From: a virus
Direction: 5' to 3' (one strand)
DNA length: 44,715 bases
IMG/VR virus record: IMGVR_UViG_3300045988_039553
Location: 1-44,715 of that record
Both the position numbers and the translations under genes were made by a program. Shown one piece after another: positions 12,991 to 34,120 of the stretch (position 1 is the first letter of the stretch; each line of letters opens with the position of its first letter). Under the pieces are notes generated by a model that saw only the letters and a list, made by a program, of their open reading frames with translations, was not told the origin of the DNA and did no database searches.

Positions 12991-12992
12991 GT

Positions 12993-13168: not shown

Positions 13169-13197
13169 CGAAAACTGGAAAAGTTAAGGTGATATAA

Positions 13198-13611: not shown

Positions 13612-13612
13612 C

Positions 13613-14740
13613 ATGGCGAATTGCATCAAATGTAAAGCAGCGCTGCCGGATGGCGCGCTGTTTTGTCCTATATGCGGAAAAAAGCAGGCATCTGTCGACC
13701 GAAAAGCCACAAAACGCGGCAACGGGACGGGGACGGTCTATAAGCGCGGCTCTTCATGGGTAGCCGAAATCACCAAAGGCTACCGTGAAGAAGACGGCAA
13801 GCTGACCCGCGTGAAAGCGAAAAAATGCGGCTTCCGCACAAAACGAGAAGCCTTAGAATATATCCCTATGCTGCGGACGCAAAAGCTCCGTGAAAAGGAT
13901 ATCACTTGGCGCAAGGCATACGAATTATGGTTCCCGACGCACCGAGCCGACAAGTCCACGCTGAATTGCTATGCCGCTGCCGAAAAGTATTTTGCATCGA
14001 TCGAATTTATGAAACTGGCCGCGGTCGAGATTGATGACATCCAAGAATGCATTGATGACTGCCCGCGCGCCAAACAGACAAAGAAGAACATGCGCACCGT
14101 GTGCAGCCTGATCTATAAGTACGCCGTTCCGCGCGGATACGCCCCTATGAGTATGGCCCCGTATCTCACCGTCACCGGTGAAAACGCCGCGCCGCGCGCG
14201 AGTTTTGATGCCGACCAGATCAAAAAGATAAAAGAGGCCTGCGGCGTGATTCCATACGCCGACTATATCTACTGCATGTGTTACCTCGGCTTCCGCCCTA
14301 CAGAATTTCTCGGCCTGTCGATTGATAACTACGACAAGAAAGAAAAGGTGCTTCGAGCTGGTATCAAGACTGAAGCGGGCAAGAATAGAACCGTCACGAT
14401 ATCCCCCAAGATTCAGCCCATCATAGACCGGCTGTCGAAAGATAAGATATCCGGCGCGCTGTTCTGCAACGAAGAAGGAAACGCGTTCAGATATGACTAT
14501 TTTCGCGACGAGGTTTTCTATCCCACATTAAAGGCCATCGGCATTGATAATCCGATTGAGAACAAGCGGCACAAATACTCTCCCCATACGTGCCGCCATA
14601 CCTTCGCGACGCTGATGAAAAACATTCAGGCGTCGGACAAGGACAAGCTCGAACTGATCGGTCATGCAAGTCCTGAAATGCTGCGCTATTATCAGGATGT
14701 CAACCTGACAGACCTCCGAAAAATCACAGATGCGATATAG
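13613..14740 (+). CDS. int: Tyrosine integrase with an N-terminal zinc-ribbon
   Basis: N-terminal CIKCKAALPDGALFCPICG. Catalytic region HTCRHTFATLM...GHASPEMLRYY. GGAGGGG SD before the ATG at 13613. Confidence 0.9.
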   Translation: MANCIKCKAALPDGALFCPICGKKQASVDRKATKRGNGTGTVYKRGSSWVAEITKGYREEDGKLTRVKAKKCGFRTKREALEYIPMLRTQKLREKDITWRKAYELWFPTHRADKSTLNCYAAAEKYFASIEFMKLAAVEIDDIQECIDDCPRAKQTKKNMRTVCSLIYKYAVPRGYAPMSMAPYLTVTGENAAPRASFDADQIKKIKEACGVIPYADYIYCMCYLGFRPTEFLGLSIDNYDKKEKVLRAGIKTEAGKNRTVTISPKIQPIIDRLSKDKISGALFCNEEGNAFRYDYFRDEVFYPTLKAIGIDNPIENKRHKYSPHTCRHTFATLMKNIQASDKDKLELIGHASPEMLRYYQDVNLTDLRKITDAI

Positions 14741-14747
14741 TTTCCTC

Positions 14748-14767
14748 GTTACCCCCTTGTTACCCCC
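14748..14767 (+). repeat. Two direct GTTACCCCC repeats (candidate integrase arm-type sites, P arm)
   Basis: GTTACCCCC at 14748-14756 and 14759-14767. Confidence 0.55.
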
Positions 14768-14792
14768 ATCGAGCGATTTTCCGTTGATATTC

Positions 14793-14853
14793 CGTCACTT
14801 TTCGGTGACTGGGGGTCAAGAGGCCGTGAGTTCAAGTCTCGCCACTCGGACCA
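14793..14853 (+). other. tRNA 3-prime-end-like segment (T-arm, 3-prime acceptor strand, A, CCA); putative attP core
   Basis: GTGAG-TTCAAGT-CTCGC gives a 5-bp T-stem with a canonical T-loop, followed by CACTCGG-A-CCA ending at 14853. No matching 5-prime half or D-arm exists upstream, so it is not an intact tRNA gene. Confidence 0.6.
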
Positions 14854-14860
14854 AGAAAAA

Positions 14861-14891
14861 CCTCGAAACCGTTGTGGTTCCGAGGTTTTTT
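14861..14891 (+). terminator. Rho-independent terminator
   Basis: Stem cctcgaaacc / ggttccgagg with one mismatch, followed by tttttt. Confidence 0.7.
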
Positions 14892-14943
14892 CATATTTAG
14901 ACTATTCTGGCAAATTCTCGATTATGCCCAATATTTCTATCTT

Positions 14944-14964
14944 GTTACCCCCGCAGTTACCCTC
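14944..14964 (+). repeat. GTTACCCCC and GTTACCCTC direct repeats (candidate arm-type sites, P-prime arm)
   Basis: Located at 14944-14952 and 14956-14964, in the same orientation as the upstream pair. Confidence 0.55.
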
Positions 14965-14968
14965 GCAT

Positions 14969-15003
14969 AAAAGGCCTCTACCAATTGTGGGCAGAGGCCT
15001 TTT
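14969..15003 (-). terminator. Bidirectional-looking rho-independent terminator ending the leftward cargo operon
   Basis: 11-bp stem aaaaggcctct / agaggcctttt with a 13-nt loop. Confidence 0.75.
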
Positions 15004-15500: not shown

Positions 15501-15902
15501 TCAAACCCTCTGCACGCGCAGCGCCACATTATTGACCGTAGCGGCAACACCGGTGAGCACCAGCGTCAGGGCGGACCCTGCCGCGCAACAGACCTGACGC
15601 ACAAGCGCCGGAATGTTGAGATCGACCGTGCCATTGGCGGCAGCAGTCTCGGATGCAGTAGCGCCGGGAACGGCAACGCCGTCCTTGTAGAGCGTCGCCG
15701 TGACCGTGCCAGCTGCCGTCGGTACGACGGTGACCGAGGCGTCTACATCGTAGTAGCCCGCGCCGGTGATGTTGACGGCGTTGCCGTTAAGCGCCACATC
15801 ACAGCCGTAGCGGCGGATAAGGCTGCCAAGAGGGATGACGCCGTCGACCGCGACAGCGGTAGGCGTCTGCATGGCAGCGTAAAGAGCGGATTTACAAGAC
15901 AT
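15501..15902 (-). CDS. BclA C-terminal-domain-like (C1q/TNF-like jelly-roll) protein, without a collagen stalk
   Basis: GGAAGGAG SD. Alternating beta-strand pattern ...ITGAGYYDVDASVTVVPTAAGTVTATLYKDGVAVPGA...LTLVLTG...NVALRVQRV resembles the exosporium BclA CTD. Confidence 0.45.
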   Translation of the reverse strand: MSCKSALYAAMQTPTAVAVDGVIPLGSLIRRYGCDVALNGNAVNITGAGYYDVDASVTVVPTAAGTVTATLYKDGVAVPGATASETAAANGTVDLNIPALVRQVCCAAGSALTLVLTGVAATVNNVALRVQRV

Positions 15903-17634: not shown

Positions 17635-18210
17635 TTACTTCATTGTTGCAAGTTTCCTGATGAGATCGTCGCCGTATTTGTAAGCGGCGAGGTAGTCCAT
17701 CGTCGCATCAGCCAGACCGGAGCGCTTCTTGAGCACTTCGCGATAGCTCGCCTCATACTTCGGGCGGTATGCGCCCAGCACGAGCGACTTCGCCCGCTTC
17801 TTTCGATACACGCCATCGCCGTTGGCCTGACTGCCTTTTACGCCGCTCGACGTGTTTCCCTCGATGGCGGTCACATACTGACCGCTCACGCTCTCGCAGA
17901 TGCCCGTATGGTCGGTCTTGACCTTCGTGTTGGGAAAGTCGTAGATCAGCACGTCACCCGGCTGATAGCCGGACGTGACCCACTGCCCGTGCGCTTTCGC
18001 GTAGTTCATCAGCTCGCCGCAGCTTGCGGTCTTTCCACCGCCGTAGAAGAGGGACTTATCCACCTGCTGAAAGCACCACCACACAAACTGCATGCACCAG
18101 TACACGCCGTCCACGCCGTAGGCCTTGCCGTATTTCTGCCGGTTGCCCGGGCACTCCACCGTGCCGATCTCCTTGCGTGCGATGGCGAGGATGTCTTCTG
18201 CTCTCGCCAT
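17635..18210 (-). CDS. CHAP-domain endolysin
   Basis: Catalytic-Cys context GVYWCMQFVWW and His context KTDHTGI. Sits immediately downstream of the holin. Confidence 0.8.
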   Translation of the reverse strand: MARAEDILAIARKEIGTVECPGNRQKYGKAYGVDGVYWCMQFVWWCFQQVDKSLFYGGGKTASCGELMNYAKAHGQWVTSGYQPGDVLIYDFPNTKVKTDHTGICESVSGQYVTAIEGNTSSGVKGSQANGDGVYRKKRAKSLVLGAYRPKYEASYREVLKKRSGLADATMDYLAAYKYGDDLIRKLATMK

Positions 18211-18213
18211 TCC

Positions 18214-18414
18214 TTACGCCCCCTTGTCGATCGCGTCCTGCGTCTTCTGACTCTGCGTGCCGAAGTAGAACGCGATGATGACCGCATAGATCGTCATAAA
18301 GTCCTGCGAGATGTTGCCCGTGACGGCCATGTAAGCGAAAACGCCCGTCAGCACCAGCGTCACGAGGCTTTTGACGCTCATCAGGTTTGCCAATCTTTTG
18401 TGAATCAGTTCCAT
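18214..18414 (-). CDS. Holin (66 aa, two TM)
   Basis: MELIHKRLANLMSVKSLVTLVLTGVFAYMAVTG...IYAVIIAFYFG with a charged C-terminus. Position between XhlA and the endolysin. Confidence 0.7.
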   Translation of the reverse strand: MELIHKRLANLMSVKSLVTLVLTGVFAYMAVTGNISQDFMTIYAVIIAFYFGTQSQKTQDAIDKGA

Positions 18415-18415
18415 G

Positions 18416-18610
18416 TTATTCGTCCTTTCCTTTGATTTTGATTCCCGCCAGTAAGCCAAGCTCCGCCGTCCACGCGGCGAACCACGCGACGGTCAGACTG
18501 TCCGGCACTACCTTGTCATGCGCGGTCAATACGAGCACCGCAATGCAGTACCAGCAGAGGTTGAGCACTGCCGCGATGACGTACTTGTCCCGCTTTCTCA
18601 GCTTCTTCAT
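18416..18610 (-). CDS. Small two-TM membrane protein of the lysis cassette (holin-like or holin accessory)
   Basis: MKKLRKRDKYVIAAVLNLCWYCIAVLVL...AWFAAWTAELGLLAGI. ATGA overlap with xhlA. Confidence 0.55.
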   Translation of the reverse strand: MKKLRKRDKYVIAAVLNLCWYCIAVLVLTAHDKVVPDSLTVAWFAAWTAELGLLAGIKIKGKDE

Positions 18611-18909
18611 AAGGCCACCCCCGACAGCAGCCACGCGATAAACGCACCCGCCAGCGCCGCGAGAGCCTTGTCGACCAGGCTGTCCCAGCGTTTCCCTGCC
18701 TTGCCCGTGATGGCTTTCACGTCCTCTTTGATCTCTTTGACGTCTCCCTCGACGGTCTCCTGCTTGGTCGCCAGCACTTCGACCGACGTTGCCAGCCTGT
18801 CAAGCGCCGTTTGGTGCTCCTGCAGCTCGTTGATTCGATGCGTATTGCTCTTGCACCGCGATTCGATGAGCGCGATTGCCGCGTCGTCGTAGTGCTTTGC
18901 ATTATCCAT
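18607..18909 (-). CDS. xhlA: XhlA-family haemolysin-like lysis protein
   Basis: Coiled-coil region (HRINELQEHQTALDRL...) followed by the C-terminal TM ALAALAGAFIAWLLSGV. Confidence 0.7.
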   Translation of the reverse strand: MDNAKHYDDAAIALIESRCKSNTHRINELQEHQTALDRLATSVEVLATKQETVEGDVKEIKEDVKAITGKAGKRWDSLVDKALAALAGAFIAWLLSGVAL

Positions 18910-19020: not shown

Positions 19021-22000
19021 TTAAACCGCTTTCTTCCGTGCGATTGCAAGCTGCTCGTCCACCCGCGCGCGGTTCCAATGGCGAATCTTCTTCGGCACGT
19101 CCAAATATTCGTACATCGCCGTGCGCTGCTGCTCGTTAAGCCCTGAGCGGAACAGCATTTCCATGATCTGCAAGCCTTTGCTATAGTCGATGCTGTCGCC
19201 GTCCTTGTCCTTCAGCATTTCGCACTCGCTCGCCGCCGCCTTGCAGGCCGCGAACACGCCGGGGGCGATGCGGTACTGCTTCTGTGCCTCCTGCGCATTC
19301 TGGATCCATTTGGTCGTGATCTCGTACTGCCCGCCGGAGTTTTCTTTCAGCGCCACCGCCTCGGCGTAGCTCTCGACGTAGCCAAGCGTCTTGTCTTTGC
19401 CCTCGTCAGAGAGGCGGGAGAAGGCCCCGCTGCTCGTTGCCTTATCAGCCTGCGTGCGGTAGGCGTCGCTCTTCTGCGTCTCATACTTGCTGTACGAGCT
19501 CGCGTTGAGGTCCGCCGCGCTGAATTTCTCCTCGCCCTCGCCGCTGTCATAGGCGTACTTCCCGCGAATGCCAAGCAGGTCAAGCGACTTCTGCGGGAAC
19601 GAGTAGTTGGCCTCGCTCTCGGCCTTCTTGTTGTAGCGGGTCTTGAGGCTGCTTTGGATGCTCTCTCCGTCAAGCCCCATCTGCTCCATCAATTCGCGGC
19701 GCACGTGCTCATAGGTCGCGTAATCACCATGTTCCAGCGCATCGTAAAGAATGCCGATAAACCGGCTCTTGTTGCCGCTGTTGGCAAGGTTGTAACTGAA
19801 CTTCTCCACCTCATACTGGAAGCCGAGGCTGCCGCTCGCCTGTGCGATGGTGCGCAGCGTCGCCATAAGGTCGCGCTTGATGTTGGCGACCGGCAGACCA
19901 AACATCTTGCTCGCCGCAACCAGAAGCGTGAGCGTGGCCTCCTTACGGGTCTTCTTGCCGTCACCGCCTGCGCTGTCAACAAAGGTTTTTGCCGCGTTGA
20001 TTAGATCGGAGAAGACCTCCATATCAGGGCGCGACACATCATAGCCCTGCGCAAGCGAGAGAACGTCCTTTGCGAATGGGATTTGCGCCACGGGGTTCAT
20101 GTTGCTGACGACGTTGCCGTTCAACACGACGTTGCCGATTAACTCGAGTGCGTTCTTCTCGTCCCCCTCAGCGCCCGTAAAAGCTGAAAGAAATTTCTCC
20201 CCGTAGTCCTTGTCGCGGTCATCGTCGCGCAGGCCGTCGACAATGCTCTGTGCCAGCGCATTCACCACATTCGTAACGACCAGCGCCGTCGCCGCGCGCC
20301 CCAGCGTCTTCAAAGCCTTGCTGCGCTTCGCCGGGTTCTCCTCATATCGGAAGTTGTCGTAGCTGCGAAGCAGCACGTTCAGGCTCATGATGGGCTCGCC
20401 CATAAAGGCTGTCGCCTGCTGCGAGAGGGTGCTCTTGCCACGCATGATGTTGCTGCGCTGCAAGATTCCGTCGACGACCTGCGTCTGATCGATCATATCG
20501 GAGAACACATCGTTGACCGCGCTGTAAAACTCGTTGCTGCCCGCGCGGACGTCGGGATTTTCACGCTTCACCTGCCACTCGCAGGCGTTCCACAGTTTCC
20601 CCCACGTCGCGGCATCCGCCTTGCCCGCAGCAGCGCCCGCGAGGTCGTTCAGTTTGTTCGTCACGCCCTCTTTACCGTAGAATCGGTCTTTCAGCGTGTA
20701 CGGTGACGAGATATCAAAGCTGCCGACGTCCTTGCGCATTGCGATAGGGGAATGCTCAAGCGCTTTCTCCCAGCCGCTTCCCTTCGTCACGCCGCCGGTC
20801 ATGCCCTTTGCCATGTCCTTCGGATCAAGAACCGCCGCCGCGCGGAAGAAAGCCGTCGGCTGCTGGATGACGACGCGGATGTTCGCGCCGACAGACGCGC
20901 CCTTGAATTTGCCGACGAACTTTCCCATCTTGCCCGTGATCGGCTCAAAGTCTTTCGTGCCGATGCCGTTCTGAATGTCGCCCATCAGTTTTTGCCAATA
21001 CTGCTGCGCGCCATTGCCGCCCTTTTCGTCGAGCAAGCCCTTGACGCTCACGCCGGTCTTATTCCCTGCGTCATTGCGGTACTGGAAGTTGAAGAAACGG
21101 TTTGCATCCTCCATCGGTGCGAGCCATGCCGCGTAGTCGATCATGTCAGATGCGTGGTCGGCGAACGTATCAAACACGCTGCGCAGCTCCACGGCGTTGT
21201 TCGCGTTTGGCGTCACCTGCTGCGCCATGCCGATATTCTTGATGGAGCGCACATTGCCGCTGTCCTTCTCGAGGTTGCTGTGCAGTGCTTCCTTTGCTGA
21301 CTTGATGGGCCAGTAGTTTTTCTCGGTGAATTTGCGGTAGCCGTAGGCCTGCATGCTCGCGTCGTTGCCGTACTTGGCAAGCGTCGTTGCCGTCAAGTCC
21401 TGCAAGCCGTCCGCCACGCGCTTCTGCTCGTCCGTCAACTTGCCCGTGATGCGCTCGATATCTCCACCAGTCAAAAAGACCTGCTGCGTGCCACGCGGCA
21501 CTTTTGTCCTGCCGGTCTCCGCGCTCTTGATCTCCGGCTGGATGACGCCGCCGCCAAGAAGATGTCCAAGCGCCTGCTTGCGCTTGCTCAGAAGGTACAG
21601 CTCCATGATCTGCGGCGTTGTCAGCGTCAGCTCGGCTTTCCCAGCGGTCGTGATGTCGTGCGTCTCCGCCTCCCACTTGCCGATGGCGCTGCCGCGCGCG
21701 TCGCGCAGTGCGCCTTTCAGGTCGCCGTGGACAGCCTTTCCAGCAATATCCTTGAAGCCGGCCTCACCCAGCTCGTCGCTAAGCACCTTCCGCGTCTTTT
21801 CGGCGATATCGCGCGCCATGATCTCCTGATGATCCTGTGCATTGCGTAGCATCCGGTAGATGCTCTTGCCCGTCTCGCCGTAGTGCGCGAAGAACGTGTA
21901 CGGCGTTTCTAAGCTGATCGTCGTATTGTTGCCGAGCTTCTTCCGGCGCGTGCTCACGTCGGTCTTGAAGGCATCCGCCATCTGCTTTGTGGTCTCGAAT

Positions 22001-25000
22001 TTGCTCTTGGAGAGAACCTTGCCTGCCGTCGAGACGGATTTCTCCACCGCGCGGATGGTCTTCCACATCGTTCCGAGCTCTTCGCGCGTCAGCTCAGATA
22101 GCCGCTTGTTCTCCATCCCGATAACCTGCCCAAGCAAGCCGTCCGAGCCATCAGTTCCAAGCAGCGACGGGTCGATGACCATGTCATCGCCGTCTGTCTC
22201 TTTCCCTGAAAGAATGCCTTGATACTGCTTCTGCAATGCGCGGAATGCCTCGGTGCGCTTTGTCGGCGTGCCGCTGCCGTCATAGACGCGCTTGCCGCTT
22301 TCGTCCACGGTGTAGGTGCTCTCCTGATTGATGCTGTTCAGCACTGCCGCCACCGCCGAGCGCATATTCTCGGGGATGTGCTTCGTGTCCGTCGGGCGTA
22401 GCAGCTTCTTCGACAGGTCTTTTGCGTGCCGCGTGATCTTCGCGCGCAGCTCGCGGCGCTTCTGCCCCTCGCGGCGCGTTGCGTCCTTCTCACGGTAACG
22501 GTCTTTCAGCGCGTCCAGCTTTTCCGCCTGCTGCGCGCGTGCCTTCTGCAAGGCTTCCTGCGTGTGGCGCAGCTTTACGGCATCCGTGCGTCCCTGGGCC
22601 ATCTGTCCTGCGAGCTTCGCGTCAGCCGCGGCCTTGCGCCCTGCTGCTTTCGCCGCGTCCAGCTTCTCCGCCTGCACGTCGGCAAAGGTTTTCTTCGCCT
22701 GCGGCAGGTCAAAGAATCGCTCCATGACGTCATTCGAAATGGCACTGACTGCCTGACCCATATAGCCCTCAAACGGGTTATATTCGCTCACGTTGTAGAG
22801 CTCATTTGCCACGTCCGCAATGCGCGCGATCTGGTCACTCACGTTGTTCTCGCGCGTCTCGCTGAAAAACTCAGGGTAGCTTTCCGCCAGCTCGGAATAG
22901 ACCTGATCGACGTTCGTATGCTCGCCCTTGCCGAGGTTCACCTTGCCGAAGAGGCTGCGCCGGAAGTCGACGTAGTCCGTGATGCCCGCCGCATCCTCAG
23001 CGGAGAGCGTGATCTTCGTATCTTTCAGGTACTTGCGCAGTTCGCTATACTCGCGGTATACCTCGTCATCTTTTGCGATGGCGCTCTCTGCGATGCGCTG
23101 GGCAATGGCGTCCGCGCGGCTTCTTGCCTCAGTGTAGGTCAGCTCGCCGGTCTCGTCACCACCGCGCGCGATGTAGTCATACAGGCTCGCAAGATCGCCC
23201 GCGATCTCGCCACTATCGATCTCCGCACCGTAGCGTCGCGTCAGCTCCTTCGCCGCCTTTTCCACACTCTTGCTGTCAGTGCGCACGCCGTCCGAGCGCT
23301 TTGTCTGCCCCTTCCAGTAGTCCACGCGCTCGCGCAAGGTCTCATTCTCACGCTTGAGCGCCGCGATCTCCTGCGCGTTCTCCGTGCCCTTGAGAGATAG
23401 GAACTGTGCAAGGCTCGATACCTGCGGCGTTGTTCCGTCCTCAAAATAGGCTTTGATGTCCGCGAGAACCTTGTTCGCGTGCGTGCCACGCGGGTATTCC
23501 GTGCTCGATACCGTCTGCCCGTCAGGCGTATCAAGGTCAAGAATGACCTCACCGCGATTGTGGCTGATAAAATCAGAAAGAGAATCAAGCTGATTCTTTG
23601 TTGGCATAACAGAGAGGTTAATGCCGCCACTCTCGGGCGAAATTCGGATATTGCCCTCGCTCATAAACTGAACCATGCTGCCGCTGTAATCGCTGCCGCC
23701 GTAGTCATCGCCCAGCGCGTCGCGTATGTCACGGTGGTCGACCGTTCGATATCCGCCGGGCCCACCTTCATGTCTGCCGGAGAAGTCAAGCTTCTTACCG
23801 TTCGTCAGGATATAGCCGGTCTCCGACCACTTATAAGTGTGCCCAAAATAGGCGTCCGCGTCTTTGCGGTGCTGCTTCTTCTCTTCGTCGGTGTAGGTCT
23901 TGAGAGAATAGCGCTTCTTGTCGTTTTCCTTCGTCAGTCTCCCGCTTTCGCTGATTGGAACGCCTGCTTTTTTTAGCTCTGCCAAAAGCCCCGGCGTCAC
24001 TACATTGTCTGGCACGGCAATGTCAGTCCCGCCAAGCAGTTCTTTATACATGCCTGCGACTTCCGCGTCAGAGAGGATTCGAACGGGCTTGATCCAACGA
24101 GAAAGGAATACTTTGCGTTCAATGCCCTTTGCCTTTCTGACCTGCCCCGCCACCGTTCCGGTGTGCCAGGAATGCCAACCGGTAGAATCCTTTGCTCCCT
24201 CTGCGTGGTATCCACTCGTATCTTCGCTCACGGGGACTTCGCATTCTACCGTAACAAGGTTGTTTCTCGCATACGCGCCGCTAAACTGGTCGTTGATAAC
24301 AAGGTTCGAAGAGTGCATATATGGGTTATATGCTGCCTCAAGGCTCCCCTGCCCCTTGCCTTTATCCAGTTTGAATTTCCCATTCTTCACAAGGTCAGGG
24401 CGCTCAACCGCCATTTCCCACGCGCCAAGCTCACTTGCGTCCTCGTATTTCCCCTCAACACGCGCAGCCATCGGCGGGTACAGCTTCCCGTCCACAAGCT
24501 GCATTGTTTTATAGGTCTTGACGGTTTTTTGCCCATCAAGGTAATCCAGAGTGTCTTTATCGGTCACGCGAAGAGAGTATCGGGCATCGTCATATCTAAT
24601 GTCGTCGCCCTTCCGAACAGAAGAATCGACCCTATTGACATTCTCCCCGTTTTGGAGTACACTTTTTTCAGAGGCATTTCCTGCACTTTTTACCGGCCCC
24701 GTTTCGGGTGTACCGAGAGCAGGAGATGCCTTTATATTTTTATTGTCCCTCAACGCCAGCGTGTAAATGTATCCATCGCTGCTCCCAATTTCTTTTTCAA
24801 CGTCTGCCACCAAATCAAACACTTTCCCGTCAATTTGAACGGTCTTGACGAAATAGTCAAAATAGTCCGCGTTCGTATGCGTTTTCGTGTTTGACTTGCT
24901 TCCCGTGTACTTCGAATTTTCCAAAAGGTTGAACACGTCACCATCTGCGCCTGCTTTTGTAAGCGCTTTTACGCCGCTGACGCTTGACCTCGAATCGCCA

Positions 25001-27384
25001 TAAATAGGCTTTCTAATACTATTGGGGTCGAATTTCGCATAGTATGTATGCCCGTTCCGTTCGAACCTCGCTGTCTTGCCGCGGTACTCATTCTTGAGAT
25101 CGTCAAGGTACTTTGCCCTTCTATCGTCCCACGTCAAGGCCATCGTGCCACCGCTGGTTTCATATACCTCGATCCCGTCTTTATTTTTGCCCTTCAAGTC
25201 GAAGCGCGTGCCGCCCTCTGTGGCGGCATTTTTGCTGTTCTGCGCCGCCGCTTCAAATGCCTGCTGTAAAAGCCCCTCCGCTGTCTGCGCCTGCTGTTTC
25301 GCCTTGCCGGTCAGCTTACCCACGATCTCGCGGATCGCGTCGCGCAGCTTTTCAAGCAGCGTGCGGTCTTCGCTGTGCCTGCGGATGAACTCATTCAGAA
25401 CGTCCGTGTTGGCGATCATCTCGCCCGCGTAGTTCGCCGCGGCCTCGTCCAGCGCTTCATCCGCGCTGATCTCAACGCCCATGCGGTTATACTGCTCATA
25501 CAGAATGTTCGCCGCCTCGGCAACGTCGGGGTCTTCCATGATGGCATCGCGGAACGCCGTGTACTGCTCGGGCGCAAGCTCCTGCACACGGTGCGTCCAC
25601 TCATGGCCGACAACCTGCATCACGGGGTCCTGCGCATCCTTTGCAATGCGGATTTCGTTGCCCTCGATCACGCCGTTTGCCGTGCCGCCACGCACCGCGT
25701 CAGCCATGCGCACGCGCACGCCGAGCGCCTTTGCGACGGTATTGATCTCGTCTGCCGTCGCGCTGTCCATTTCACGTGAAACGTAATCATCATAGACAAG
25801 GCCGCTGCCTCCGTCGCTCTCCTGCGCAAAGGTCTTCTTGCGCGCCTCGGCCTTTGCGTCGTTCTGCCCTGCGACATAGCCTGCATAGGCCGTCTCATTT
25901 GTCGGGTTCGGGTTCGCCTTGCCCTCCACGCCCGCATTGTAGGCAGGGATAAAGTCCTTCACGTGCTGCGCCGTGTCCTTGCCCTCCTGGTACGAGCCAC
26001 GAATCGCTTTTCGCCCTCTCTCGCCGATCATGCTGTCATAACGGGCAAAGAGCCGGTCGGCAATACCGTTCACGATTTCCGCGTCGCTGCGCGTCTCCGT
26101 CTGCGTCTTCGGCAGTTCGGTACGGCTGTCATAATAGCGCCCGCCGCGGTTCCCGATGGCTTCCACGCCACCGCCAAGCCCGCCGAGGATACCGCCGACA
26201 AGGAAGTCGTTCAGAATTTCCGATGCTTCCAGCTCGCTATAGCTCCCGCCGAGCGTCTTCCCGTTATAGATCATCTGCAAAGCAGGCTGGATGAGGTCTT
26301 CAATGGCTTCCTCGCCGCCCTCTTCGAGGAACGACAGCGCAATCTTGCCCGCCGCGCTGCTGTTGAGCCCATGCATCGTGCGCTCGATGACATCATCCAA
26401 GAAGCCCTTACCGAACATCTTTTTGAACGGCGCTGCCGCGTTGCCGATCTTCTCGGTCGCCACGCTGAGCGCGCCGCTTGCAAAGCCATAGTTTACCTGC
26501 TGCTCGTGCGTTGCGCCCTGTCTGCGCGCCTCCTGCGCGCCACTGCCCATGCTACGAATGGCCATAGGGAAAAGTGCTGTTCCAAACATAAAGGGCGATA
26601 ATGCAATATCTTCTGCCATTTGTGTGCCTGCAACACCCGCATCAACGGCAAGCTGCCCGACTTTGCCCAGCCCACTTTTCGCCTTGTTGATATCTTTTGC
26701 GCCGCTGTCGGCCAGCCTGTCAGCAGCCTTGTAGATTGCGCCCGCCGTGCGCTCAACCTCGCCGCCGATGCCGTAAGCCTGCCGATACGCGGCCTTGCGC
26801 GCTTCCAGATTCGTGATGACGGTGCGTGCCGTTTCGCGCTCGCTCTCGGTGCTGCTGGGGTCTGCCAGCACGTCGCGCTGCGCCTTGATATCCTGATCCC
26901 ACAGCGCAATTTCTTTCTCAGCTTCGCCGCGGCGCTGCAAGCCGCTTCCGGTCTGCGCCAAACCGACGGCGTTCGTGACACCCGCGCCATAGGTCTTCGT
27001 CGCGCCCTTGAGCGTATTGCCGACGCGCTGCGCAACCGTTTGCGGCTTCACGTCCTTCACATGCTGATTGAAGGCTTTTTCGCTCTGGTAGTTCTTCGCC
27101 TCTTGCTGCTGCAAAGCGCCCTTGCCGAGGCTCTGCGCAAGCGCATTCTGGTTCTTCGGCGTCACGACATTCTGCTGCACGGTCGGCTGCTGGCGGAACA
27201 TCGGGCTTGTGCCAGACTGCCGGCGGGGGCTTTGGGCTCCCGCGTCCTTTGTCTGCACCGCGGGCGGCGTGCTCTGCGGATCTCCAATCTTTACAAGCCG
27301 ACCGTTTGCGCCGGTGCCGACCACCGTGCGCTTTTCTTCCTGCTGTTCCTGCACCGCAGGCGTTGTCTTGACAAGTCGCCCCAT
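19021..27384 (-). CDS. Giant multi-domain (polyvalent-type) virion protein, 2,787 aa. It has a membrane/glycine-zipper region, an HEXXH zincin-like domain, a nuclease-like (BECR/MuF-C-like) module, further conserved modules, coiled coils and a large helical C-terminal region.
   Basis: Uninterrupted ORF with a GGAGGG SD. HEWTH is encoded at 25591-25605 (verified in the DNA). Hydrophobic Gly-rich segments lie at aa 255-410. The module NGHTYYAKFD...DYFDYFVKTVQIDGKVFDLVADVEKE...YIYTLALRD lies at aa 725-885. Confidence 0.8.
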   Translation of the reverse strand: MGRLVKTTPAVQEQQEEKRTVVGTGANGRLVKIGDPQSTPPAVQTKDAGAQSPRRQSGTSPMFRQQPTVQQNVVTPKNQNALAQSLGKGALQQQEAKNYQSEKAFNQHVKDVKPQTVAQRVGNTLKGATKTYGAGVTNAVGLAQTGSGLQRRGEAEKEIALWDQDIKAQRDVLADPSSTESERETARTVITNLEARKAAYRQAYGIGGEVERTAGAIYKAADRLADSGAKDINKAKSGLGKVGQLAVDAGVAGTQMAEDIALSPFMFGTALFPMAIRSMGSGAQEARRQGATHEQQVNYGFASGALSVATEKIGNAAAPFKKMFGKGFLDDVIERTMHGLNSSAAGKIALSFLEEGGEEAIEDLIQPALQMIYNGKTLGGSYSELEASEILNDFLVGGILGGLGGGVEAIGNRGGRYYDSRTELPKTQTETRSDAEIVNGIADRLFARYDSMIGERGRKAIRGSYQEGKDTAQHVKDFIPAYNAGVEGKANPNPTNETAYAGYVAGQNDAKAEARKKTFAQESDGGSGLVYDDYVSREMDSATADEINTVAKALGVRVRMADAVRGGTANGVIEGNEIRIAKDAQDPVMQVVGHEWTHRVQELAPEQYTAFRDAIMEDPDVAEAANILYEQYNRMGVEISADEALDEAAANYAGEMIANTDVLNEFIRRHSEDRTLLEKLRDAIREIVGKLTGKAKQQAQTAEGLLQQAFEAAAQNSKNAATEGGTRFDLKGKNKDGIEVYETSGGTMALTWDDRRAKYLDDLKNEYRGKTARFERNGHTYYAKFDPNSIRKPIYGDSRSSVSGVKALTKAGADGDVFNLLENSKYTGSKSNTKTHTNADYFDYFVKTVQIDGKVFDLVADVEKEIGSSDGYIYTLALRDNKNIKASPALGTPETGPVKSAGNASEKSVLQNGENVNRVDSSVRKGDDIRYDDARYSLRVTDKDTLDYLDGQKTVKTYKTMQLVDGKLYPPMAARVEGKYEDASELGAWEMAVERPDLVKNGKFKLDKGKGQGSLEAAYNPYMHSSNLVINDQFSGAYARNNLVTVECEVPVSEDTSGYHAEGAKDSTGWHSWHTGTVAGQVRKAKGIERKVFLSRWIKPVRILSDAEVAGMYKELLGGTDIAVPDNVVTPGLLAELKKAGVPISESGRLTKENDKKRYSLKTYTDEEKKQHRKDADAYFGHTYKWSETGYILTNGKKLDFSGRHEGGPGGYRTVDHRDIRDALGDDYGGSDYSGSMVQFMSEGNIRISPESGGINLSVMPTKNQLDSLSDFISHNRGEVILDLDTPDGQTVSSTEYPRGTHANKVLADIKAYFEDGTTPQVSSLAQFLSLKGTENAQEIAALKRENETLRERVDYWKGQTKRSDGVRTDSKSVEKAAKELTRRYGAEIDSGEIAGDLASLYDYIARGGDETGELTYTEARSRADAIAQRIAESAIAKDDEVYREYSELRKYLKDTKITLSAEDAAGITDYVDFRRSLFGKVNLGKGEHTNVDQVYSELAESYPEFFSETRENNVSDQIARIADVANELYNVSEYNPFEGYMGQAVSAISNDVMERFFDLPQAKKTFADVQAEKLDAAKAAGRKAAADAKLAGQMAQGRTDAVKLRHTQEALQKARAQQAEKLDALKDRYREKDATRREGQKRRELRAKITRHAKDLSKKLLRPTDTKHIPENMRSAVAAVLNSINQESTYTVDESGKRVYDGSGTPTKRTEAFRALQKQYQGILSGKETDGDDMVIDPSLLGTDGSDGLLGQVIGMENKRLSELTREELGTMWKTIRAVEKSVSTAGKVLSKSKFETTKQMADAFKTDVSTRRKKLGNNTTISLETPYTFFAHYGETGKSIYRMLRNAQDHQEIMARDIAEKTRKVLSDELGEAGFKDIAGKAVHGDLKGALRDARGSAIGKWEAETHDITTAGKAELTLTTPQIMELYLLSKRKQALGHLLGGGVIQPEIKSAETGRTKVPRGTQQVFLTGGDIERITGKLTDEQKRVADGLQDLTATTLAKYGNDASMQAYGYRKFTEKNYWPIKSAKEALHSNLEKDSGNVRSIKNIGMAQQVTPNANNAVELRSVFDTFADHASDMIDYAAWLAPMEDANRFFNFQYRNDAGNKTGVSVKGLLDEKGGNGAQQYWQKLMGDIQNGIGTKDFEPITGKMGKFVGKFKGASVGANIRVVIQQPTAFFRAAAVLDPKDMAKGMTGGVTKGSGWEKALEHSPIAMRKDVGSFDISSPYTLKDRFYGKEGVTNKLNDLAGAAAGKADAATWGKLWNACEWQVKRENPDVRAGSNEFYSAVNDVFSDMIDQTQVVDGILQRSNIMRGKSTLSQQATAFMGEPIMSLNVLLRSYDNFRYEENPAKRSKALKTLGRAATALVVTNVVNALAQSIVDGLRDDDRDKDYGEKFLSAFTGAEGDEKNALELIGNVVLNGNVVSNMNPVAQIPFAKDVLSLAQGYDVSRPDMEVFSDLINAAKTFVDSAGGDGKKTRKEATLTLLVAASKMFGLPVANIKRDLMATLRTIAQASGSLGFQYEVEKFSYNLANSGNKSRFIGILYDALEHGDYATYEHVRRELMEQMGLDGESIQSSLKTRYNKKAESEANYSFPQKSLDLLGIRGKYAYDSGEGEEKFSAADLNASSYSKYETQKSDAYRTQADKATSSGAFSRLSDEGKDKTLGYVESYAEAVALKENSGGQYEITTKWIQNAQEAQKQYRIAPGVFAACKAAASECEMLKDKDGDSIDYSKGLQIMEMLFRSGLNEQQRTAMYEYLDVPKKIRHWNRARVDEQLAIARKKAV

Positions 27385-28623
27385 TTAGCCCTCCTCATAG
27401 GAATACCCGTACTGCTTGAGCAGTTTTTGCATTTCTGCTTTCTGTTCGCTTGTCATCATCGGCCAAGTCTTGTCTAATGTGCCAAGGATTCGGCCCCCGT
27501 CCCCGTTTTTAAGCGATGTATTGAATCCGGACAGCAGTGCGATAAACTGGCCTTGTGGCATCATTCTGCCGCCACTGTTTCCATTGCCCCCACCGTTCTG
27601 ACCTTCCAGCCAATCTTTATAGCCGTCATATGCGCCGCTCGAAGAGGTAAACCCAAACTTTTTATAGTTGTTGGCAATATAGCTCTTCGGGTAGCCGGAC
27701 TGATATGCCGCTTCAAACAAGCCATCATAGTCCGCCTCTCTCGGCGGAGCCGTCACGTTGTTGGAGCGTCTTGTGCCGCTTGCCTTCCCCGCCGCTGCCT
27801 GCGCGGCCTGCTGCAATTTATACTGCCATTCCGCATTATAGCGTGCGTCCTCGATGGCATCGCGTTCCTTCTGGTAGTTATAGTTGAGCTTGTCCTGCTG
27901 CTTCTGATACGCCAGCGCATCCGCCGTCTGCTGGTCGCCCACCTGATCGCGCGCGAGCTGATAGAGGTAATTGCGGTCAGCCAGCCAGCGGTTGTAGTTG
28001 TTGTCCTCAAGGCCGATGAGCGTATTCAGGTCGGCGCGGTCGCCGCTCAATTTATCCTGATACATGCTATAGGCGAGCTGCTGAAGCTCGGGAATCTTGT
28101 CCGTCATCTGGCTCATCTGGTAGTCGCTCGCCTGTTGGCTCGCTGCCACCGCCGCCGTGGACGGCATCCCGCCCGTCATCACTGCCGTCTTGCCGAGCAC
28201 ATCCTCCGCGCTGCGGTCTGCCTCGCGCGTGTACTGCTTGCGATACTGCTGATAGAGTGGGTCACTCGCCGCGTCGTAGGAAAACGGCGTGCGATTCAGC
28301 AGCGCGTCGAGCTTTGCGCTGATCTGTCCGCTCTGGTCATAGTTGTAGCTGCTGTCGCCCAGCTTATCGAGCCAGCTCGTGTCAGCCTTTGCAGGGCTCG
28401 CGCCCGTGCCGAGTTTGATGTACTCGCTGCCGTCCACGCCGCCGGAATAGTCGTACTTCGCGCGGATTTTCTCCGCTGCGTCGTGCGCCGCCTGCTGGCC
28501 CGCCTTGTCTCCCTCGGCATATGCCTTGTTGTAGGCCTCGGTATACTGCCGGATGAGATCAAGGTCTCCAGAATCGTTGATGAGCGTCAGGTCTGTATTC
28601 TTGTGTTTGAAATTATCTGCCAT
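27385..28623 (-). CDS. Virion structural protein (412 aa), function unknown
   Basis: Track ORF within the structural operon. Q/Y/D-rich. Confidence 0.6.
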   Translation of the reverse strand: MADNFKHKNTDLTLINDSGDLDLIRQYTEAYNKAYAEGDKAGQQAAHDAAEKIRAKYDYSGGVDGSEYIKLGTGASPAKADTSWLDKLGDSSYNYDQSGQISAKLDALLNRTPFSYDAASDPLYQQYRKQYTREADRSAEDVLGKTAVMTGGMPSTAAVAASQQASDYQMSQMTDKIPELQQLAYSMYQDKLSGDRADLNTLIGLEDNNYNRWLADRNYLYQLARDQVGDQQTADALAYQKQQDKLNYNYQKERDAIEDARYNAEWQYKLQQAAQAAAGKASGTRRSNNVTAPPREADYDGLFEAAYQSGYPKSYIANNYKKFGFTSSSGAYDGYKDWLEGQNGGGNGNSGGRMMPQGQFIALLSGFNTSLKNGDGGRILGTLDKTWPMMTSEQKAEMQKLLKQYGYSYEEG

Positions 28624-28630: not shown

Positions 28631-30217
28631 TCACTTTCTGCCGCCCGTCACGTATTCGTACTCGAGCGCATAGAGCCGGTATTCTCCTGTGGCTTTGATT
28701 TTTAATCTAAAGTGGTCGCAGCGGCGGATCGGGCAGTTGAGCGTGAAAACGTCTTTCTCCTGTGCCCCGCAGCGGTCGACCTCTTCCCACGCGCCGCCGT
28801 CAAACTTGACAAGGAACACGATCGTTGAGCCCTTCTCGCATTCTAGCCGCGCCCGCACGCGCTGCACGTGCTTCGCGTCAAACGAGCCGCCGTCATAGTC
28901 GGCAAACTCCGCCTCGCTAACAACAGTGCCCTCTCGTGTTGCGCTGGCCGGGATATCTGCCGGATTTCCCAGCAGCACGCACCCACCGTCTACTAAGGCC
29001 ATGATACCGCCCGAATAGGCCATTTGCACCACGGCAAGCGTATCTTCCTTATGCCACACGCCGTTCTCGCTGCTGTAGCAGTACAGAGCTGCCTTGCCAT
29101 CCTCTTTCAGGCTCACGTAGTAGTTGAGACCGTCGCTTCCACCCACCGCGTCAGAGAGGCGCACATCGTCGCCCAGCGTGCGGGAGATGCAGCGCGGCAT
29201 GCCGCCGCTGTACGCCATGATACCGACCTTCGAGAGGTAATAGAGCGTTTCGCCCGCCACGGCGAGGCTCTTGTGGCTGCCCTTCATCACGCCGAGCACC
29301 GCGCTTGACATGAGTTGGAAGTTTGTCGGAATCGTGCCGTACATCTTGAAGATTTTGTCCTCTTTGAAAAAGCACGGGTAGCCAAGGTAGCTCACGCACG
29401 CCGTGAACGCTCCCGCCGTGCCGCTCTCCACGCTGAACGCATCCGTGGAGAGCCCGTCAAACACGTTCCAGTTGTACGGGTCGCCGAGCTTTGAAGCAAA
29501 GATGCTGTCGCCCTTGCATCCCCACACGCGGTTCTCGTTCGTGCAGACAAAATCCATGTCGGGCACGCTGCGATTGAGCGTGACTGTTCCAGGCTCCGTG
29601 ATGCTTTCCTGCCCGTCGGGCAGGCGGAAGGTGTTTTCATAAAAGCGCAGCGTCTTTTTGTCCTCGCTGATCTCCCGGATGATGGGTGTGCGGTTGTTGT
29701 AGGTCTCCTTTGTGCAGCCCGAGATCGTCACGGCGTCGCCCACGTTAAACGGGAACGCCGCGCCGGTCGTCGTGATGCTGTTTGCCGCCGCCTTTTCGTC
29801 AGCATACGTGCCATTCCCGAATTTCAGCCCCGCCGCGGCGTAGCTCGCCTCCATCGGCTTGATCGTGCCGTCCTTTTCACACACGATCTTGTCGGGGAAA
29901 ATGAGCACGCGCTCGCCCAGTGCACAGAAAGTCTTTTCGCTGTCTGCGACCGTCAACTTCTCCTCGCCGTTGACGTAGAGCTTCGTTCCGTATACCTCGT
30001 AGAGCTTTCCTGCACTGAAAATGCCGTTTGCAGTCCCCATATCCTTGCGGACGGTATAGCGCCTCGCACGGGGGGAAAGAAGCGGGAAGTATCGCGCCGA
30101 CAGGTTCTTCATGTCGTAGAGCTCGCCGCCCGCCGCACCGAACGTGTGGTTGATGCCTCCGAATTTCTCTTGCTGCACGCGCCGGTTCGTATATGCCGTG
30201 ATCTCAGGCAGTCTCAT
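28631..30217 (-). CDS. Virion structural protein (528 aa), possibly a tail or adaptor component
   Basis: Track ORF within the structural operon. No motif recognised. Confidence 0.6.
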   Translation of the reverse strand: MRLPEITAYTNRRVQQEKFGGINHTFGAAGGELYDMKNLSARYFPLLSPRARRYTVRKDMGTANGIFSAGKLYEVYGTKLYVNGEEKLTVADSEKTFCALGERVLIFPDKIVCEKDGTIKPMEASYAAAGLKFGNGTYADEKAAANSITTTGAAFPFNVGDAVTISGCTKETYNNRTPIIREISEDKKTLRFYENTFRLPDGQESITEPGTVTLNRSVPDMDFVCTNENRVWGCKGDSIFASKLGDPYNWNVFDGLSTDAFSVESGTAGAFTACVSYLGYPCFFKEDKIFKMYGTIPTNFQLMSSAVLGVMKGSHKSLAVAGETLYYLSKVGIMAYSGGMPRCISRTLGDDVRLSDAVGGSDGLNYYVSLKEDGKAALYCYSSENGVWHKEDTLAVVQMAYSGGIMALVDGGCVLLGNPADIPASATREGTVVSEAEFADYDGGSFDAKHVQRVRARLECEKGSTIVFLVKFDGGAWEEVDRCGAQEKDVFTLNCPIRRCDHFRLKIKATGEYRLYALEYEYVTGGRK

Positions 30218-30883: not shown

Positions 30884-31789
30884 TTACTCCTCGATGAAAA
30901 ACACCGTGCCATACGGCGCGTTGCTCGGCGGCGAAGCGCCGAACGTGTAGTTGCCGCTCAGCACCAGATAGCCGCCGCCGAGCGAGACGACAGGGTAGTC
31001 GCTGGCATCGTCTTTTCCGATCAATGCAAACGGCCCCAGCTTGGATTCAAGAAAGATATTTCCCGCTGCGTGCATCTTCATGCCGCCATAGGTCGCCGTC
31101 AGACCGACGCCGACCTGCCCCGTGCCCGTGTAGGCAAGATCCATGCTGCCGACAGGGGTATCTCCGGCCAGCAGGCTTACGCTCCCGCCGCGCAGCGCGC
31201 CCGCCGTCAGAGTGCCGTCGATGTTGACTGCCTTGACGTGCAGATCGACAGTCCCCGTGCTCGCCACCTGCACGCCGTTGTAGTTGAGTTTGAAGATCGT
31301 GCCGTTCTCGCCGCTCGTCGCGCCCAGCGTGAAGCCGGTCGCGCTCTGGTCGAAAATGCTCTGTGCCTGCGTCGCGTCGATCTTGGTGCTTACCGTCGCG
31401 CGGATGCCGTTCACGTCGGCCTTGATGTTTGTGATCGCGCCGTCGAGGTTCGAAATGCTCGCCTGCAAGCCCTTTGCCGTTGTGTCAAGCTGCGTGATGT
31501 CCCCCTCAGCATCGCTAAGTCGAGCATCTAATCCTTTCGCTGTAATGGAAATTTCATTTACGTTCTTGTCCGTATCTTCGATCTTGGCGTAGATCGGCTC
31601 GGAAATATTCTTGATAAACTCGCTCAGTGCATTCTGATTGATGTTGCTCCCGTCCAGATTGAAAAGCGTATACCGAAGCTGTTCCAGAAGCACGAAAAGG
31701 TAGTCGTAGACCCCGTTGATCTGCTCCTGCGTGTCTTTGCCTTCGCCGTTCGGGAAGGTCGTCTCCACCAGCTGAAATGTCGTCGGCAC
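30884..31789 (-). CDS. Tail fibre / tail-associated protein with a coiled-coil repeat region
   Basis: Repeated segments ...ITAKGLDARLSDAEGDITQLDTTAKGLQASISNLDGAITNIKADVNGIRATV... Confidence 0.6.
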   Translation of the reverse strand: MPTTFQLVETTFPNGEGKDTQEQINGVYDYLFVLLEQLRYTLFNLDGSNINQNALSEFIKNISEPIYAKIEDTDKNVNEISITAKGLDARLSDAEGDITQLDTTAKGLQASISNLDGAITNIKADVNGIRATVSTKIDATQAQSIFDQSATGFTLGATSGENGTIFKLNYNGVQVASTGTVDLHVKAVNIDGTLTAGALRGGSVSLLAGDTPVGSMDLAYTGTGQVGVGLTATYGGMKMHAAGNIFLESKLGPFALIGKDDASDYPVVSLGGGYLVLSGNYTFGASPPSNAPYGTVFFIEE

Positions 31790-32965: not shown

Positions 32966-32977
32966 GTGTGCTCCTTT

Positions 32978-34108: not shown

Positions 34109-34120
34109 CTCAGCGCCTCC

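Follow-up and report, generated by a model that had tools for sequence, protein, structure and literature searches.

Iyer, Burroughs, Anand, de Souza and Aravind (2017, J Bacteriol, PMC5512222) define polyvalent proteins by the kind of domain mixture described below, propose that they are injected with the DNA and processed by a zincin, and count N4 gp50, which has a zincin domain, among them; P1 DdrB is described there as processed, putatively by its own zincin. A recent case is gp47 of phage phi24B, a protein of 2,811 amino acids (aa) with LPD1, LPD5 and LPD38 domains and a metallopeptidase, which is abundant in virion proteomics, is invisible in the cryo-electron microscopy map, and is proposed by its authors to be an encapsidated ejection protein whose metallopeptidase degrades the cell wall (bioRxiv 10.64898/2026.04.10.717836). 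Experimental support for injected polyvalent effectors is still thin, consisting of the P1 Dar proteins, N4 gp50 and, as of 2026, phi24B gp47. The ejection or core proteins of P22 and T7 travel inside the head and, once ejected, build a trans-envelope channel, and T7 gp16 has an enzymatic domain. Here we describe a giant gene in IMG/VR record IMGVR_UViG_3300045988_039553 (positions 1-44,715; this whole stretch of 44,715 nt, as analysed, is referred to as the window). Its product is a modular polyvalent-type phage protein and a member of a conserved family.

The gene is one uninterrupted open reading frame (ORF) of 8.4 kb between the structural genes and the lysis cassette, as had been noticed in an earlier reading of the letters alone (the original prediction). 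The gene, its ribosome-binding site and the parts of its product are as follows:

19021-27384, minus strand: giant gene, one uninterrupted ORF of 2,787 aa with an ATG start
27390-27396, minus strand: strong Shine-Dalgarno sequence GAGGAGG, read directly from the sequence
26050-27384, minus strand: N1 (aa 1-445), variable N-terminal region with unrelated versions among relatives
25192-26049, minus strand: N2 (aa 446-731), conserved HExxH (gluzincin-like) module, in every clade at 24-96% identity
25591-25605, minus strand: HEWTH (aa 594-598), the sole HExxH of the protein
25420-25452, minus strand: LDEAAANYAGE (aa 645-655), with D646-E647 invariant in a 65-sequence alignment
24775-25125, minus strand: LPD3-like cassette (aa 754-870; module about aa 735-900), PF18798, E=1e-4
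23950-24582, minus strand: module B (aa 935-1145), an unnamed alpha/beta cassette
23389-23913, minus strand: module C (aa 1158-1332), an unnamed optional cassette, GRHEGGPGGYRTVDHRDI ... EGNIRISPESGGINL
19675-23388, minus strand: C-block (aa 1333-2570), the carrier (about 1,240 aa), found in all clades with 42-97% identity
19795-21687, minus strand: C-core (aa 1900-2530), the part of strongest conservation, coinciding with the match to PHROG 22978
20203-20307, minus strand: hydrophobic helix (aa 2360-2385) and acidic LRDDDRDKDY (aa 2385-2394), conserved in the C-core
19024-19674, minus strand: C-terminal tail (aa 2571-2787, about 220 aa), clade-specific

This plan emerged when 120 close and 70 more distant proteins were mapped by BLAST. 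The 120 close matches fall into 16 architecture classes, and presence or absence among relatives sets apart no fewer than five modules: N2, LPD3, B, C and the C-block. The protein thus has four layers: a variable N-terminus, a conserved HExxH module, interchangeable cassettes, and a conserved helical carrier with a clade-specific tail. Relatives with 62-96% identity in the conserved carrier vary in total length between 2,372 and 3,114 aa. A word-indexed search returned 2,720 homologues, including near-identical full-length copies in contigs of 43-44 kb, and 79 loci came from IMG/VR, where most of the contigs measure 20-45 kb and many 40-44 kb. The family is found in temperate, P22- and Page-like phages of about 40-45 kb from Oscillibacter/Oscillospiraceae and is common in human-gut metagenomes.

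The cassette zone is where alleles part: aa 731-1153 are exchanged as a whole between proteins with 95-97% identity in their flanks. A Pfam scan of the variable zones, made for 20 diverse relatives and some close alleles, showed the slot to hold ART-PolyVal (down to 8e-31), PBECR5 (1e-58 to 3e-68), MuF_C (5e-23), LPD3, LPD23 followed by a DUF6782/SprT-like HExxH zincin domain, and a weak eCIS_core match. ART-PolyVal, LPD23 and LPD3 occur in alleles with 95-97% identical flanks, and the clades at 42-66% additionally carry PBECR5 and MuF_C. Together with the LPD3 match at aa 754-870 of the window protein, this repertoire supports the original assignment of the giant to the polyvalent type.

In DNA, both flanks of the cassette zone are 93-96% identical between relatives, and identity breaks off at nt 23920 and 25152 (aa 1155 and 744), or at nt 23400 and 25207-25247 (aa 1328 and 713-726). 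These mosaic breakpoints are the cassette junctions. Cassettes are thus exchanged with the precision of the junctions, and recombination there supplies near-identical phages with different payloads. Every cassette starts with a pentapeptide of the form [RK][YF][SDEQA][LI][KRN], which we call RYSLK-type, and the window protein has three:

25192-25206, minus strand: RFDLK (aa 727-731), heading the LPD3 cassette
24568-24582, minus strand: RYSLR (aa 935-939), heading module B
23899-23913, minus strand: RYSLK (aa 1158-1162), heading module C

Shuffled versions of the window protein contain a mean of 0.2 such motifs, and about 0.1% of them reach three. Counts over 65 relatives, non-redundant at 50% identity and with the expectation taken from shuffles, place the excess in one zone:

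Variable zone: 109 junction motifs observed, 2.6 expected
N-terminal zone: 3 observed, 2.5 expected
C-terminal zone: 4 observed, 7.0 expected

In the passages of Iyer et al. 2017 (PMC5512222) that were read, no mention of a recurrent junction motif was found. The pentapeptide may be a signal for processing or recombination, and as such is a specific and testable candidate. As the alleles differ almost only in their cassettes, they also offer a comparative system for asking which payloads counter which defences, whether the HExxH module sets them free and what the carrier does.

Within the window allele itself, LPD3 is the only Pfam match among the cassettes. PF18798 scores 22.9 bits against the whole protein and 24.7 bits against a sub-segment, below the threshold of 27, and the orthologous LPD3 cassette of a relative (P0068) scores 29.9 bits. 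The original prediction had seen a BECR/EndoU or MuF C-terminal nuclease at aa 725-885. No PBECR, other BECR or MuF_C match was found in the window protein at E<=1 (Pfam), and since the only profile match of the region is LPD3, a family with no known function, the nuclease reading is not supported. A profile check for zincin, LPD and PBECR domains at the same cut-off yielded the sub-threshold LPD3 alone, with neither a zincin nor a PBECR match in this allele.

Module B is missing from most close relatives and recurs in distant giants at 43-54% identity, with the conserved motifs YPPM, YNPY.H[ST]S, LNDQF and SGY.A..AKD. It was modelled by AlphaFold with predicted local distance difference test (pLDDT) values of 57-96 and has no match in Pfam, PHROGs, NCBIfam or the PDB. 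Its HSSN and WHTGT motifs raised the possibility of a 2H phosphoesterase, which was rejected because distant homologues do not keep the second H-x-T and have WHAGP, WKPGG or WNAGD instead. Module C is 60-100% identical where present, yet absent from many relatives; it matches nothing in Pfam, PHROGs or NCBIfam, and is 32% identical to part of a 'methyltransferase' giant of about 3.1 thousand aa in Rhodobacteraceae phage LS06-2018-MD07. MAFFT misplaced mixed sets of domain fragments, so a deep alignment was used only for N2 and module B in the second structure prediction. That prediction was confident for N2 and not confident for the LPD3 cassette and module C. All peptides quoted in the original prediction were found again in the protein and, on back-translation, lie at the places given there, among them:

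aa 262-276, minus strand: LSPFMFGTALFPMAI
aa 397-411, minus strand: GGILGGLGGGVEAIG
aa 777-882, minus strand: NGHTYYAKF... and DYFDYFVK...
aa 969-1034, minus strand: YPPM and NPYMHSSNLVINDQF
aa 1179-1220, minus strand: YFGHTYKW...

The exact HEXXH that had been placed at 25591-25605 is HEWTH, aa 594-598, and HE[WVI]TH is present in 64 of the 64 sequences that span N2 and come from complete (untruncated) ORFs. N2 was modelled from a deep alignment with pLDDT 75-89 as a helix, three strands (residues 112-116, 126-129 and 132-136 in model numbering), the HEWTH helix (142-158) and a later helix that bears D646-E647 (196-213). This layout agrees with that of a small gluzincin, in which the HExxH helix follows a small beta-sheet and a glutamate lies on a later helix; E647, 49 residues past H598, is the candidate third zinc ligand. 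N2 has no zincin or polyvalent-metallopeptidase match in Pfam at E<=1, a PDB sequence search with a profile of N2 and the C-block gave no match, and Foldseek found nothing in the PDB at E<=1e-3 for the second AlphaFold model, which contains N2, the best zincin-like hit being 3cia at E of about 1. That model has several domains, half of it of low confidence, which lowers the sensitivity of the search. A peptidase nature of N2 is supported by the motif, its conservation and the predicted topology, with no profile or fold link to a named zincin family.

The carrier belongs to a very large family. A HMMER scan with aa 1330-2529 over 1.84 billion cluster representatives (clusters at 50% identity) returned 4,332 clusters at E<=1e-3, of which 2,935 reach E<=1e-30; protein lengths among the best 150 of the 4,332 run from 0.9 to 4.1 thousand aa. 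No Pfam family (LPD included) and no NCBIfam model matches it, and PHROG 22978 is a family of unknown function with a profile 3,513 positions long. The largest conserved piece of such giants thus falls into an annotation gap. AlphaFold models aa 1330-2529 as almost all helix (pLDDT 68, predicted template modelling score 0.57, with pLDDT 80-90 over much of the C-core), in keeping with the long C-terminal helical region that had been read from the sequence. A Foldseek search of the carrier model against the PDB, complete to April 2026, found nothing at E<=1e-3, so that no resemblance was seen to T7-like or crAss-like RNA polymerases, T7 gp16, or tape-measure or tail proteins. Against BFVD the carrier has 67 significant matches. 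Many are to parts of large viral proteins, with automatic names such as 'nuclease', 'PolyVal ADP-ribosyltransferase', 'MuF C-terminal domain', 'LPD-containing' and 'type I restriction enzyme'. From matches to such records, we take the carrier to be a widespread chassis of phage polyvalent proteins. One BFVD match, to a 'structural protein' of Tenacibaculum phage Gundel, is a weak lead (E=2.7e-10, TM-score only 0.23); Gundel has podoviral morphology according to its paper, in which we found no proteomic proof for the matched protein.

Inside the C-core, the hydrophobic helix is present in all 104 non-redundant relatives and at the same position in the 12 listed. It is transmembrane-like (Kyte-Doolittle average of at least 1.6) in 36 of the 104. 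The acidic RDDD.DK follows it directly and is invariant in a 10-sequence alignment (A1). At the other end of the protein, N1 is of at least two unrelated types among proteins otherwise 95-97% identical. The window version has two glycine-rich helices (aa 258-279 and 389-412), and a hydrophobic segment lies ahead of N2 in 86 of the 104 relatives. The hydrophobic and glycine-zipper segments of the original prediction were thus located and are glycine-rich; at Kyte-Doolittle values of 1.2-1.25 (19 residues) they are only moderately hydrophobic and not clear transmembrane helices. A resemblance to an SseC-like type III translocator in an alternative N1 of 420 aa (P0054-type alleles) was too weak to use (E=0.025, 14.6 bits), although it would agree with a role in membrane insertion. 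The tail varies by clade: the alignment stops at aa 2566-2582 in the 42-46% clade and reaches aa 2779 in the clade at about 62%. The whole protein has no match among PDB sequences, and tblastn against 50,697 phage records gave three weak partial matches only. Four of its 2,787 residues are cysteines. Cysteine is strongly depleted throughout the family, with a median of 0.08% and a maximum of 0.3% of residues in the 104 non-redundant giants.

The genome around the giant gene is that of a short-tailed phage, as far as gene content can tell. The window ends share about 150 bp (1-170 and 44545-44715; a 100-base stretch from position 20 reappears at 44564), and the window is therefore a complete circular, or circularly assembled, phage genome of about 44.56 kb. 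PHROGs and/or Pfam scans took in about 40 ORFs spread across it, and among these none matched a tail tube, sheath or tape measure, as had been predicted. On the minus strand, the gene order begins with terS, terL, portal, a scaffold-position gene, major capsid and fibres, and ends with a needle-like gene, genes of 176, 528 and 412 aa, the giant gene, holin and endolysin. The small terminase is of the P22 gp3 type (PF16677) and the portal P22-type (PF16510). The major capsid protein matches PHROG 1357 and Pfam Phage_capsid_3/4, which gives no specific tie to the N4-gp56 type named in the original prediction, and its nearest cultured relatives are the Bacillus megaterium podophages Page, Pony, Pookie and their kin, then Streptomyces phages. 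The podovirus-like character originally proposed for the genome thus finds its grounds in the portal, the small terminase, the Page-group capsid relatives and the failure to find a tube, sheath or tape-measure gene. Relatives occur in contigs of Oscillibacter and Oscillospiraceae metagenome-assembled genomes, one of them 123 kb long, and identical proteins in contigs of 200-300 kb, and the phage is therefore temperate in that host group; the genome has repressor, anti-repressor and integrase genes. By its sequence, then, this is a temperate, podovirus-type, P22/Page-like phage of Oscillibacter/Oscillospiraceae. The genes that flank the giant gene most closely are these:

30884-31789, minus strand: coiled-coil protein of 301 aa; PHROG 1219 'tail needle protein' at E=2.8e-4, and Gp58 at E=5e-6, sub-threshold
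28631-30217, minus strand: protein of 528 aa; PHROG 511 'internal virion protein' at E=4.9e-54, the name being a library annotation
27385-28623, minus strand: protein of 412 aa directly upstream, without family match, coupled to the giant gene; candidate internal or tail-hub partner
18607-18909, minus strand: holin-like gene of the lysis cassette, directly downstream of the giant gene
18214-18459, minus strand: membrane protein of 81 aa, lysis cassette
17635-18210, minus strand: CHAP endolysin, lysis cassette

PDB sequence searches with the two proteins upstream of the giant gave no match, and family searches with the 412-aa protein (PHROGs, Pfam and NCBIfam) likewise gave none. The TAA of the 412-aa gene at 27385-27387 abuts the ATG of the giant ORF at 27384, which points to translational coupling of the giant gene to the upstream structural gene. 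P22 genes run in the order 3-2-1-8-5-4-10-26-14-7-20-16, and by its match to this order the giant gene stands in the slot of the ejection protein gp16. The same layout is found in a relative whose carrier is 37-40% identical, in the marine phage LS06-2018-MD07, in podophage Page and in phi24B. In the 37-40% relative the order is capsid, tail genes, genes of 677, 54 and 374 aa, the giant gene, holins, amidase and integrase, and the giant gene is preceded by proteins of 374-421 aa in the P0180 contig and in phi24B.

From the gene 16 position, the coupling to the upstream structural gene and the phi24B gp47 precedent, we infer that the giant protein is packaged and ejected. The reading that we favour, and hold to be reasonably probable, is that of a packaged, ejected polyvalent protein whose HExxH module releases cassettes that act in the cytoplasm. 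On this model the protein would be made late, alongside the structural proteins, and packed in the capsid with the two proteins encoded just upstream. It would leave through the short tail at infection, before or with the DNA, in the way that P22 gp7/gp20/gp16, T7 gp14-16, N4 gp50 and phi24B gp47 do or are proposed to do, and the carrier and hydrophobic helices may aid envelope crossing or build a conduit through the envelope. The HExxH module would then cut the chain, probably near the junctions, and free the cassettes, which would have their targets in the cytoplasm, among components of host defence or housekeeping. The low cysteine content and the C-core helix kept in all 104 relatives are features compatible with translocation. 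Packaging, ejection, self-processing and anti-defence action are all parts of this interpretation, as distinct from the modular plan itself.

Several observations weigh against it. Neither MuF nor any other known capsid-targeting domain was found in the giant protein. Its hydrophobic segments are weak (Kyte-Doolittle 1.2-1.55), and the zincin assignment comes without a significant match in Pfam (E<=1), in the PDB sequence-profile search or in Foldseek. Virion presence of the giant, or of any detectable homologue, is argued by analogy with phi24B gp47 and Page gp20, which hold comparable positions, and neither of these proteins has homology to the window giant that BLASTP, hhalign or hidden Markov models (HMMs) can detect. 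The hhalign probabilities are 1.4 for Page gp20 and 0.95 for the phi24B giant, and an HMM of 194 C-core sequences scores the two no better than 100 shuffles of each. Given the lack of detectable homology, phi24B gp47 and Page gp20 are analogues in position and architecture. The window allele has no recognised catalytic effector, its LPD3 being sub-threshold and modules B and C unnamed, so that an anti-defence role is suggested from sister alleles only. In the structure model, module B opens with a strand made up of S937-R939, preceded by a disordered linker, and a junction motif within that strand fits the start of a structural module at least as well as a protease site. Lastly, the short-tail adaptor and nozzle are likewise unrecognised, which makes the missing tube and tape-measure matches weaker evidence than they appear. 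A weak patch of the form 'G.G.Q.YW....D.Q.G' that seemed to be shared with Page gp20 and the phi24B giant was discarded, as the real sequences score no better than shuffles.

Some of the same observations could be accounted for by a late effector or toxin that is never packaged, stays inside the cell or is released by lysis, and acts on the dying host, superinfecting phages or neighbours in the manner of polymorphic toxins. The cassette repertoire (ART, PBECR5 and zincins) and its hypervariability do recall polymorphic toxins, no capsid-targeting domain such as MuF-N was found, and the giant gene adjoins the lysis cassette. We nonetheless think this unlikely, given that the gene is translationally coupled to the structural operon and that the trio arrangement is kept behind the PHROG 511 'internal virion protein' gene; a free cytoplasmic enzyme would hardly account for the conservation of a carrier of about 1,240 aa in more than 4,000 clusters, neither a signal peptide nor a secretion domain was noticed, and the analogous phi24B gp47 is present in virions. 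A purely structural role is rather more doubtful than plausible: a packaged and ejected conduit or core, its cassettes inert spacers or host-range determinants and its HExxH module a degrader of peptidoglycan, would suit an allele without a recognised catalytic effector, the wall-degrading metallopeptidase proposed by the phi24B authors, and the wall-degrading domain that T7 gp16 is generally held to have. Sister alleles carry ADP-ribosyltransferase and BECR-type RNase domains, and hypervariability with junction-precise swapping is a signature of conflict effectors, not of spacers; these facts make such a role quite improbable. Both NAD+ and RNA, on which enzymes of these kinds act, are found in the cytoplasm.

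A tape-measure-like role had been entertained in the original prediction, and size together with long helical, coiled-coil character would also befit a tape-measure or tail-building protein of a long-tailed phage with tail genes too divergent to recognise, all the more as short-tail adaptor and nozzle genes went unrecognised too. The TMP_N match is at E=0.25, which is noise, and the genes that come next are holin and endolysin, not distal-tail or baseplate genes. The portal and small terminase are P22-type, the closest cultured capsid relatives are confirmed podophages, no tail protein was matched by Foldseek, and a length of 2,372-3,114 aa among relatives with 62-96% identical carriers would alter tail length, so that this explanation is very unlikely and the tape-measure part of the prediction fails. 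The helical block of about 1,200 aa was also considered as a divergent virion RNA polymerase of the N4 gp50 or crAss-like kind, injected for early transcription. Its attractions are that Iyer et al. place N4 gp50, with its zincin, among the polyvalent proteins, that the polymerase core of gp50 measures about 1,100 aa, that the PHROG 22978 profile spans 3,513 positions, and that the acidic RDDD motif is invariant. This candidate was rejected on negative motif and fold searches and has next to no probability in our estimate. R-x3-K-x6-8-YG occurs nowhere in the protein, and the only match to [TD]xxGR is DFSGR in the optional module C, outside the carrier. Foldseek against the PDB library to April 2026, which should presumably hold the N4 mini-vRNAP, T7 RNA polymerase and phi14:2 gp66 structures, returned nothing at E<=1e-3; the model contains almost no beta structure, which excludes a double-psi beta-barrel if the model is right; and a temperate phage with repressor, anti-repressor and integrase fits the use of host polymerase.

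Returning to the packaged and ejected polyvalent protein, a bolder version of that reading is conceivable, if doubtful: the carrier, the two upstream proteins and the HExxH module may together be an undescribed ejection machine of Firmicutes short-tailed phages that passes a chain of exchangeable effectors into the cell, its built-in protease cutting the chain at the RYSLK-type junctions. If so, the machine would be a virion-borne counterpart of polymorphic-toxin and extracellular contractile injection system (eCIS) cargo systems, and the junction motif would serve both as a cleavage or recognition signal and as a recombination joint for payload swaps.

Other parts of the genome contain the following genes:

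34121-36073, minus strand: collagen-like fibre gene of 650 aa with collagen repeats
32165-34108, minus strand: adjacent genes for a DUF6273/'Hoc-like' protein (376 aa) and a CBM5/12 carbohydrate-binding protein (266 aa), putative receptor-binding or decoration proteins
694-2664, minus strand: DNA methyltransferase of 656 aa, PHROG 116 at E=1e-67, a separate gene

The collagen-repeat fibre gene sits in the GC-richest stretch of the window (up to 67% over 2 kb), and a plus-strand antisense ORF of 971 aa (33602-36517) is its shadow, one that a naive ORF caller prefers over the gene; several more long plus-strand ORFs look like antisense shadows of the same kind. In a relative (L092) leucine-rich-repeat proteins take the place of the DUF6273/CBM5/12 pair, which indicates that the host-recognition module too is swapped between relatives. 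Past the lysis genes, a 133-aa ORF (15501-15902, minus strand) has a sub-threshold match to the BclA C-terminal domain (C1q/TNF-like; 26.7 bits versus 38), which brings to mind the collagen-like fibre listed above. The integrase and two helix-turn-helix regulators are encoded on the plus strand at 11-15 kb, and 11000-15000 forms an opposite-strand island of lower GC (49-52% versus about 58%). Within this island, a 318-aa ORF at 12034-12990 has no match in Pfam, the only library tried, and may be a moron or a lysogeny-associated gene. The remaining arm of the genome holds replication, recombination, anti-repressor and DNA-methyltransferase genes. The methyltransferase, as a separate gene, is a stand-alone candidate anti-restriction function besides the giant protein.

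Public records name such giant genes after whichever cassette is present, for example 'nuclease' or 'methyltransferase'. LS06-2018-MD07 (OP947163.1; our L089) is a case in which a gene of about 9.3 kb across the origin is annotated 'methyltransferase', a giant polyvalent gene named after one cassette; it comes after genes annotated 'tail protein' and 'internal virion protein' and a 632-aa hypothetical gene. Its product resembles the window giant in occupying the slot of the last structural gene and in module C at 32% identity. Page gp20 (1,679 aa, hypothetical), from a confirmed podophage of Bacillus, is likewise encoded by the last structural gene, directly before the holins. Both of these proteins are uncharacterised.

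Among characterised systems, the P22 (gp7, gp20, gp16) and T7 (gp14, gp15, gp16) ejection proteins share with this locus a three-gene run that ends the structural operon after the needle or tail genes. The window giant differs in being two to four times larger, in its swappable cassettes and in a Firmicutes-lineage host, and it has no similarity to characterised ejection proteins by PDB sequence search or Foldseek. N4 gp50 is, like it, a giant (3,500 aa), encapsidated and ejected in a podophage, and relatives of gp50 carry ART domains; unlike gp50, the window giant is without polymerase motifs or fold, and its phage is temperate. P1 Dar proteins (DarB and DdrB) and MuF-fused toxins are comparable as head-packaged anti-restriction or effector proteins, and MuF_C occurs in sister alleles; their effectors are on separate proteins or fused to MuF, whereas the window giant has no MuF N-domain. 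The Stx2 phage phi24B (vB_EcoP_24B) offers gp47 (vb_24B_48), which differs in its LPD families (LPD1, LPD5 and LPD38), its Gram-negative host and the mid-protein location of its zincin (HEWFH, about aa 1297), but is alike in coming from a temperate short-tailed phage, in size (2,807-2,811 aa), in combining LPD domains with a metallopeptidase, and in being the last late-operon gene, after a 421-aa gene. Set against the polyvalent class as a whole, the window allele differs in that it matches only LPD3, sub-threshold, that its HExxH module misses the Pfam zincin and polyvalent-metallopeptidase models, and that neither the carrier nor module B or C has a match in Pfam, not even among the LPD families. 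It agrees with the class, as Iyer et al. 2017 present it, in being a huge single polypeptide of mosaic domain content encoded beside structural genes, and its family pairs a zincin-type module with LPD, ART-PolyVal, PBECR and MuF_C domains across alleles.

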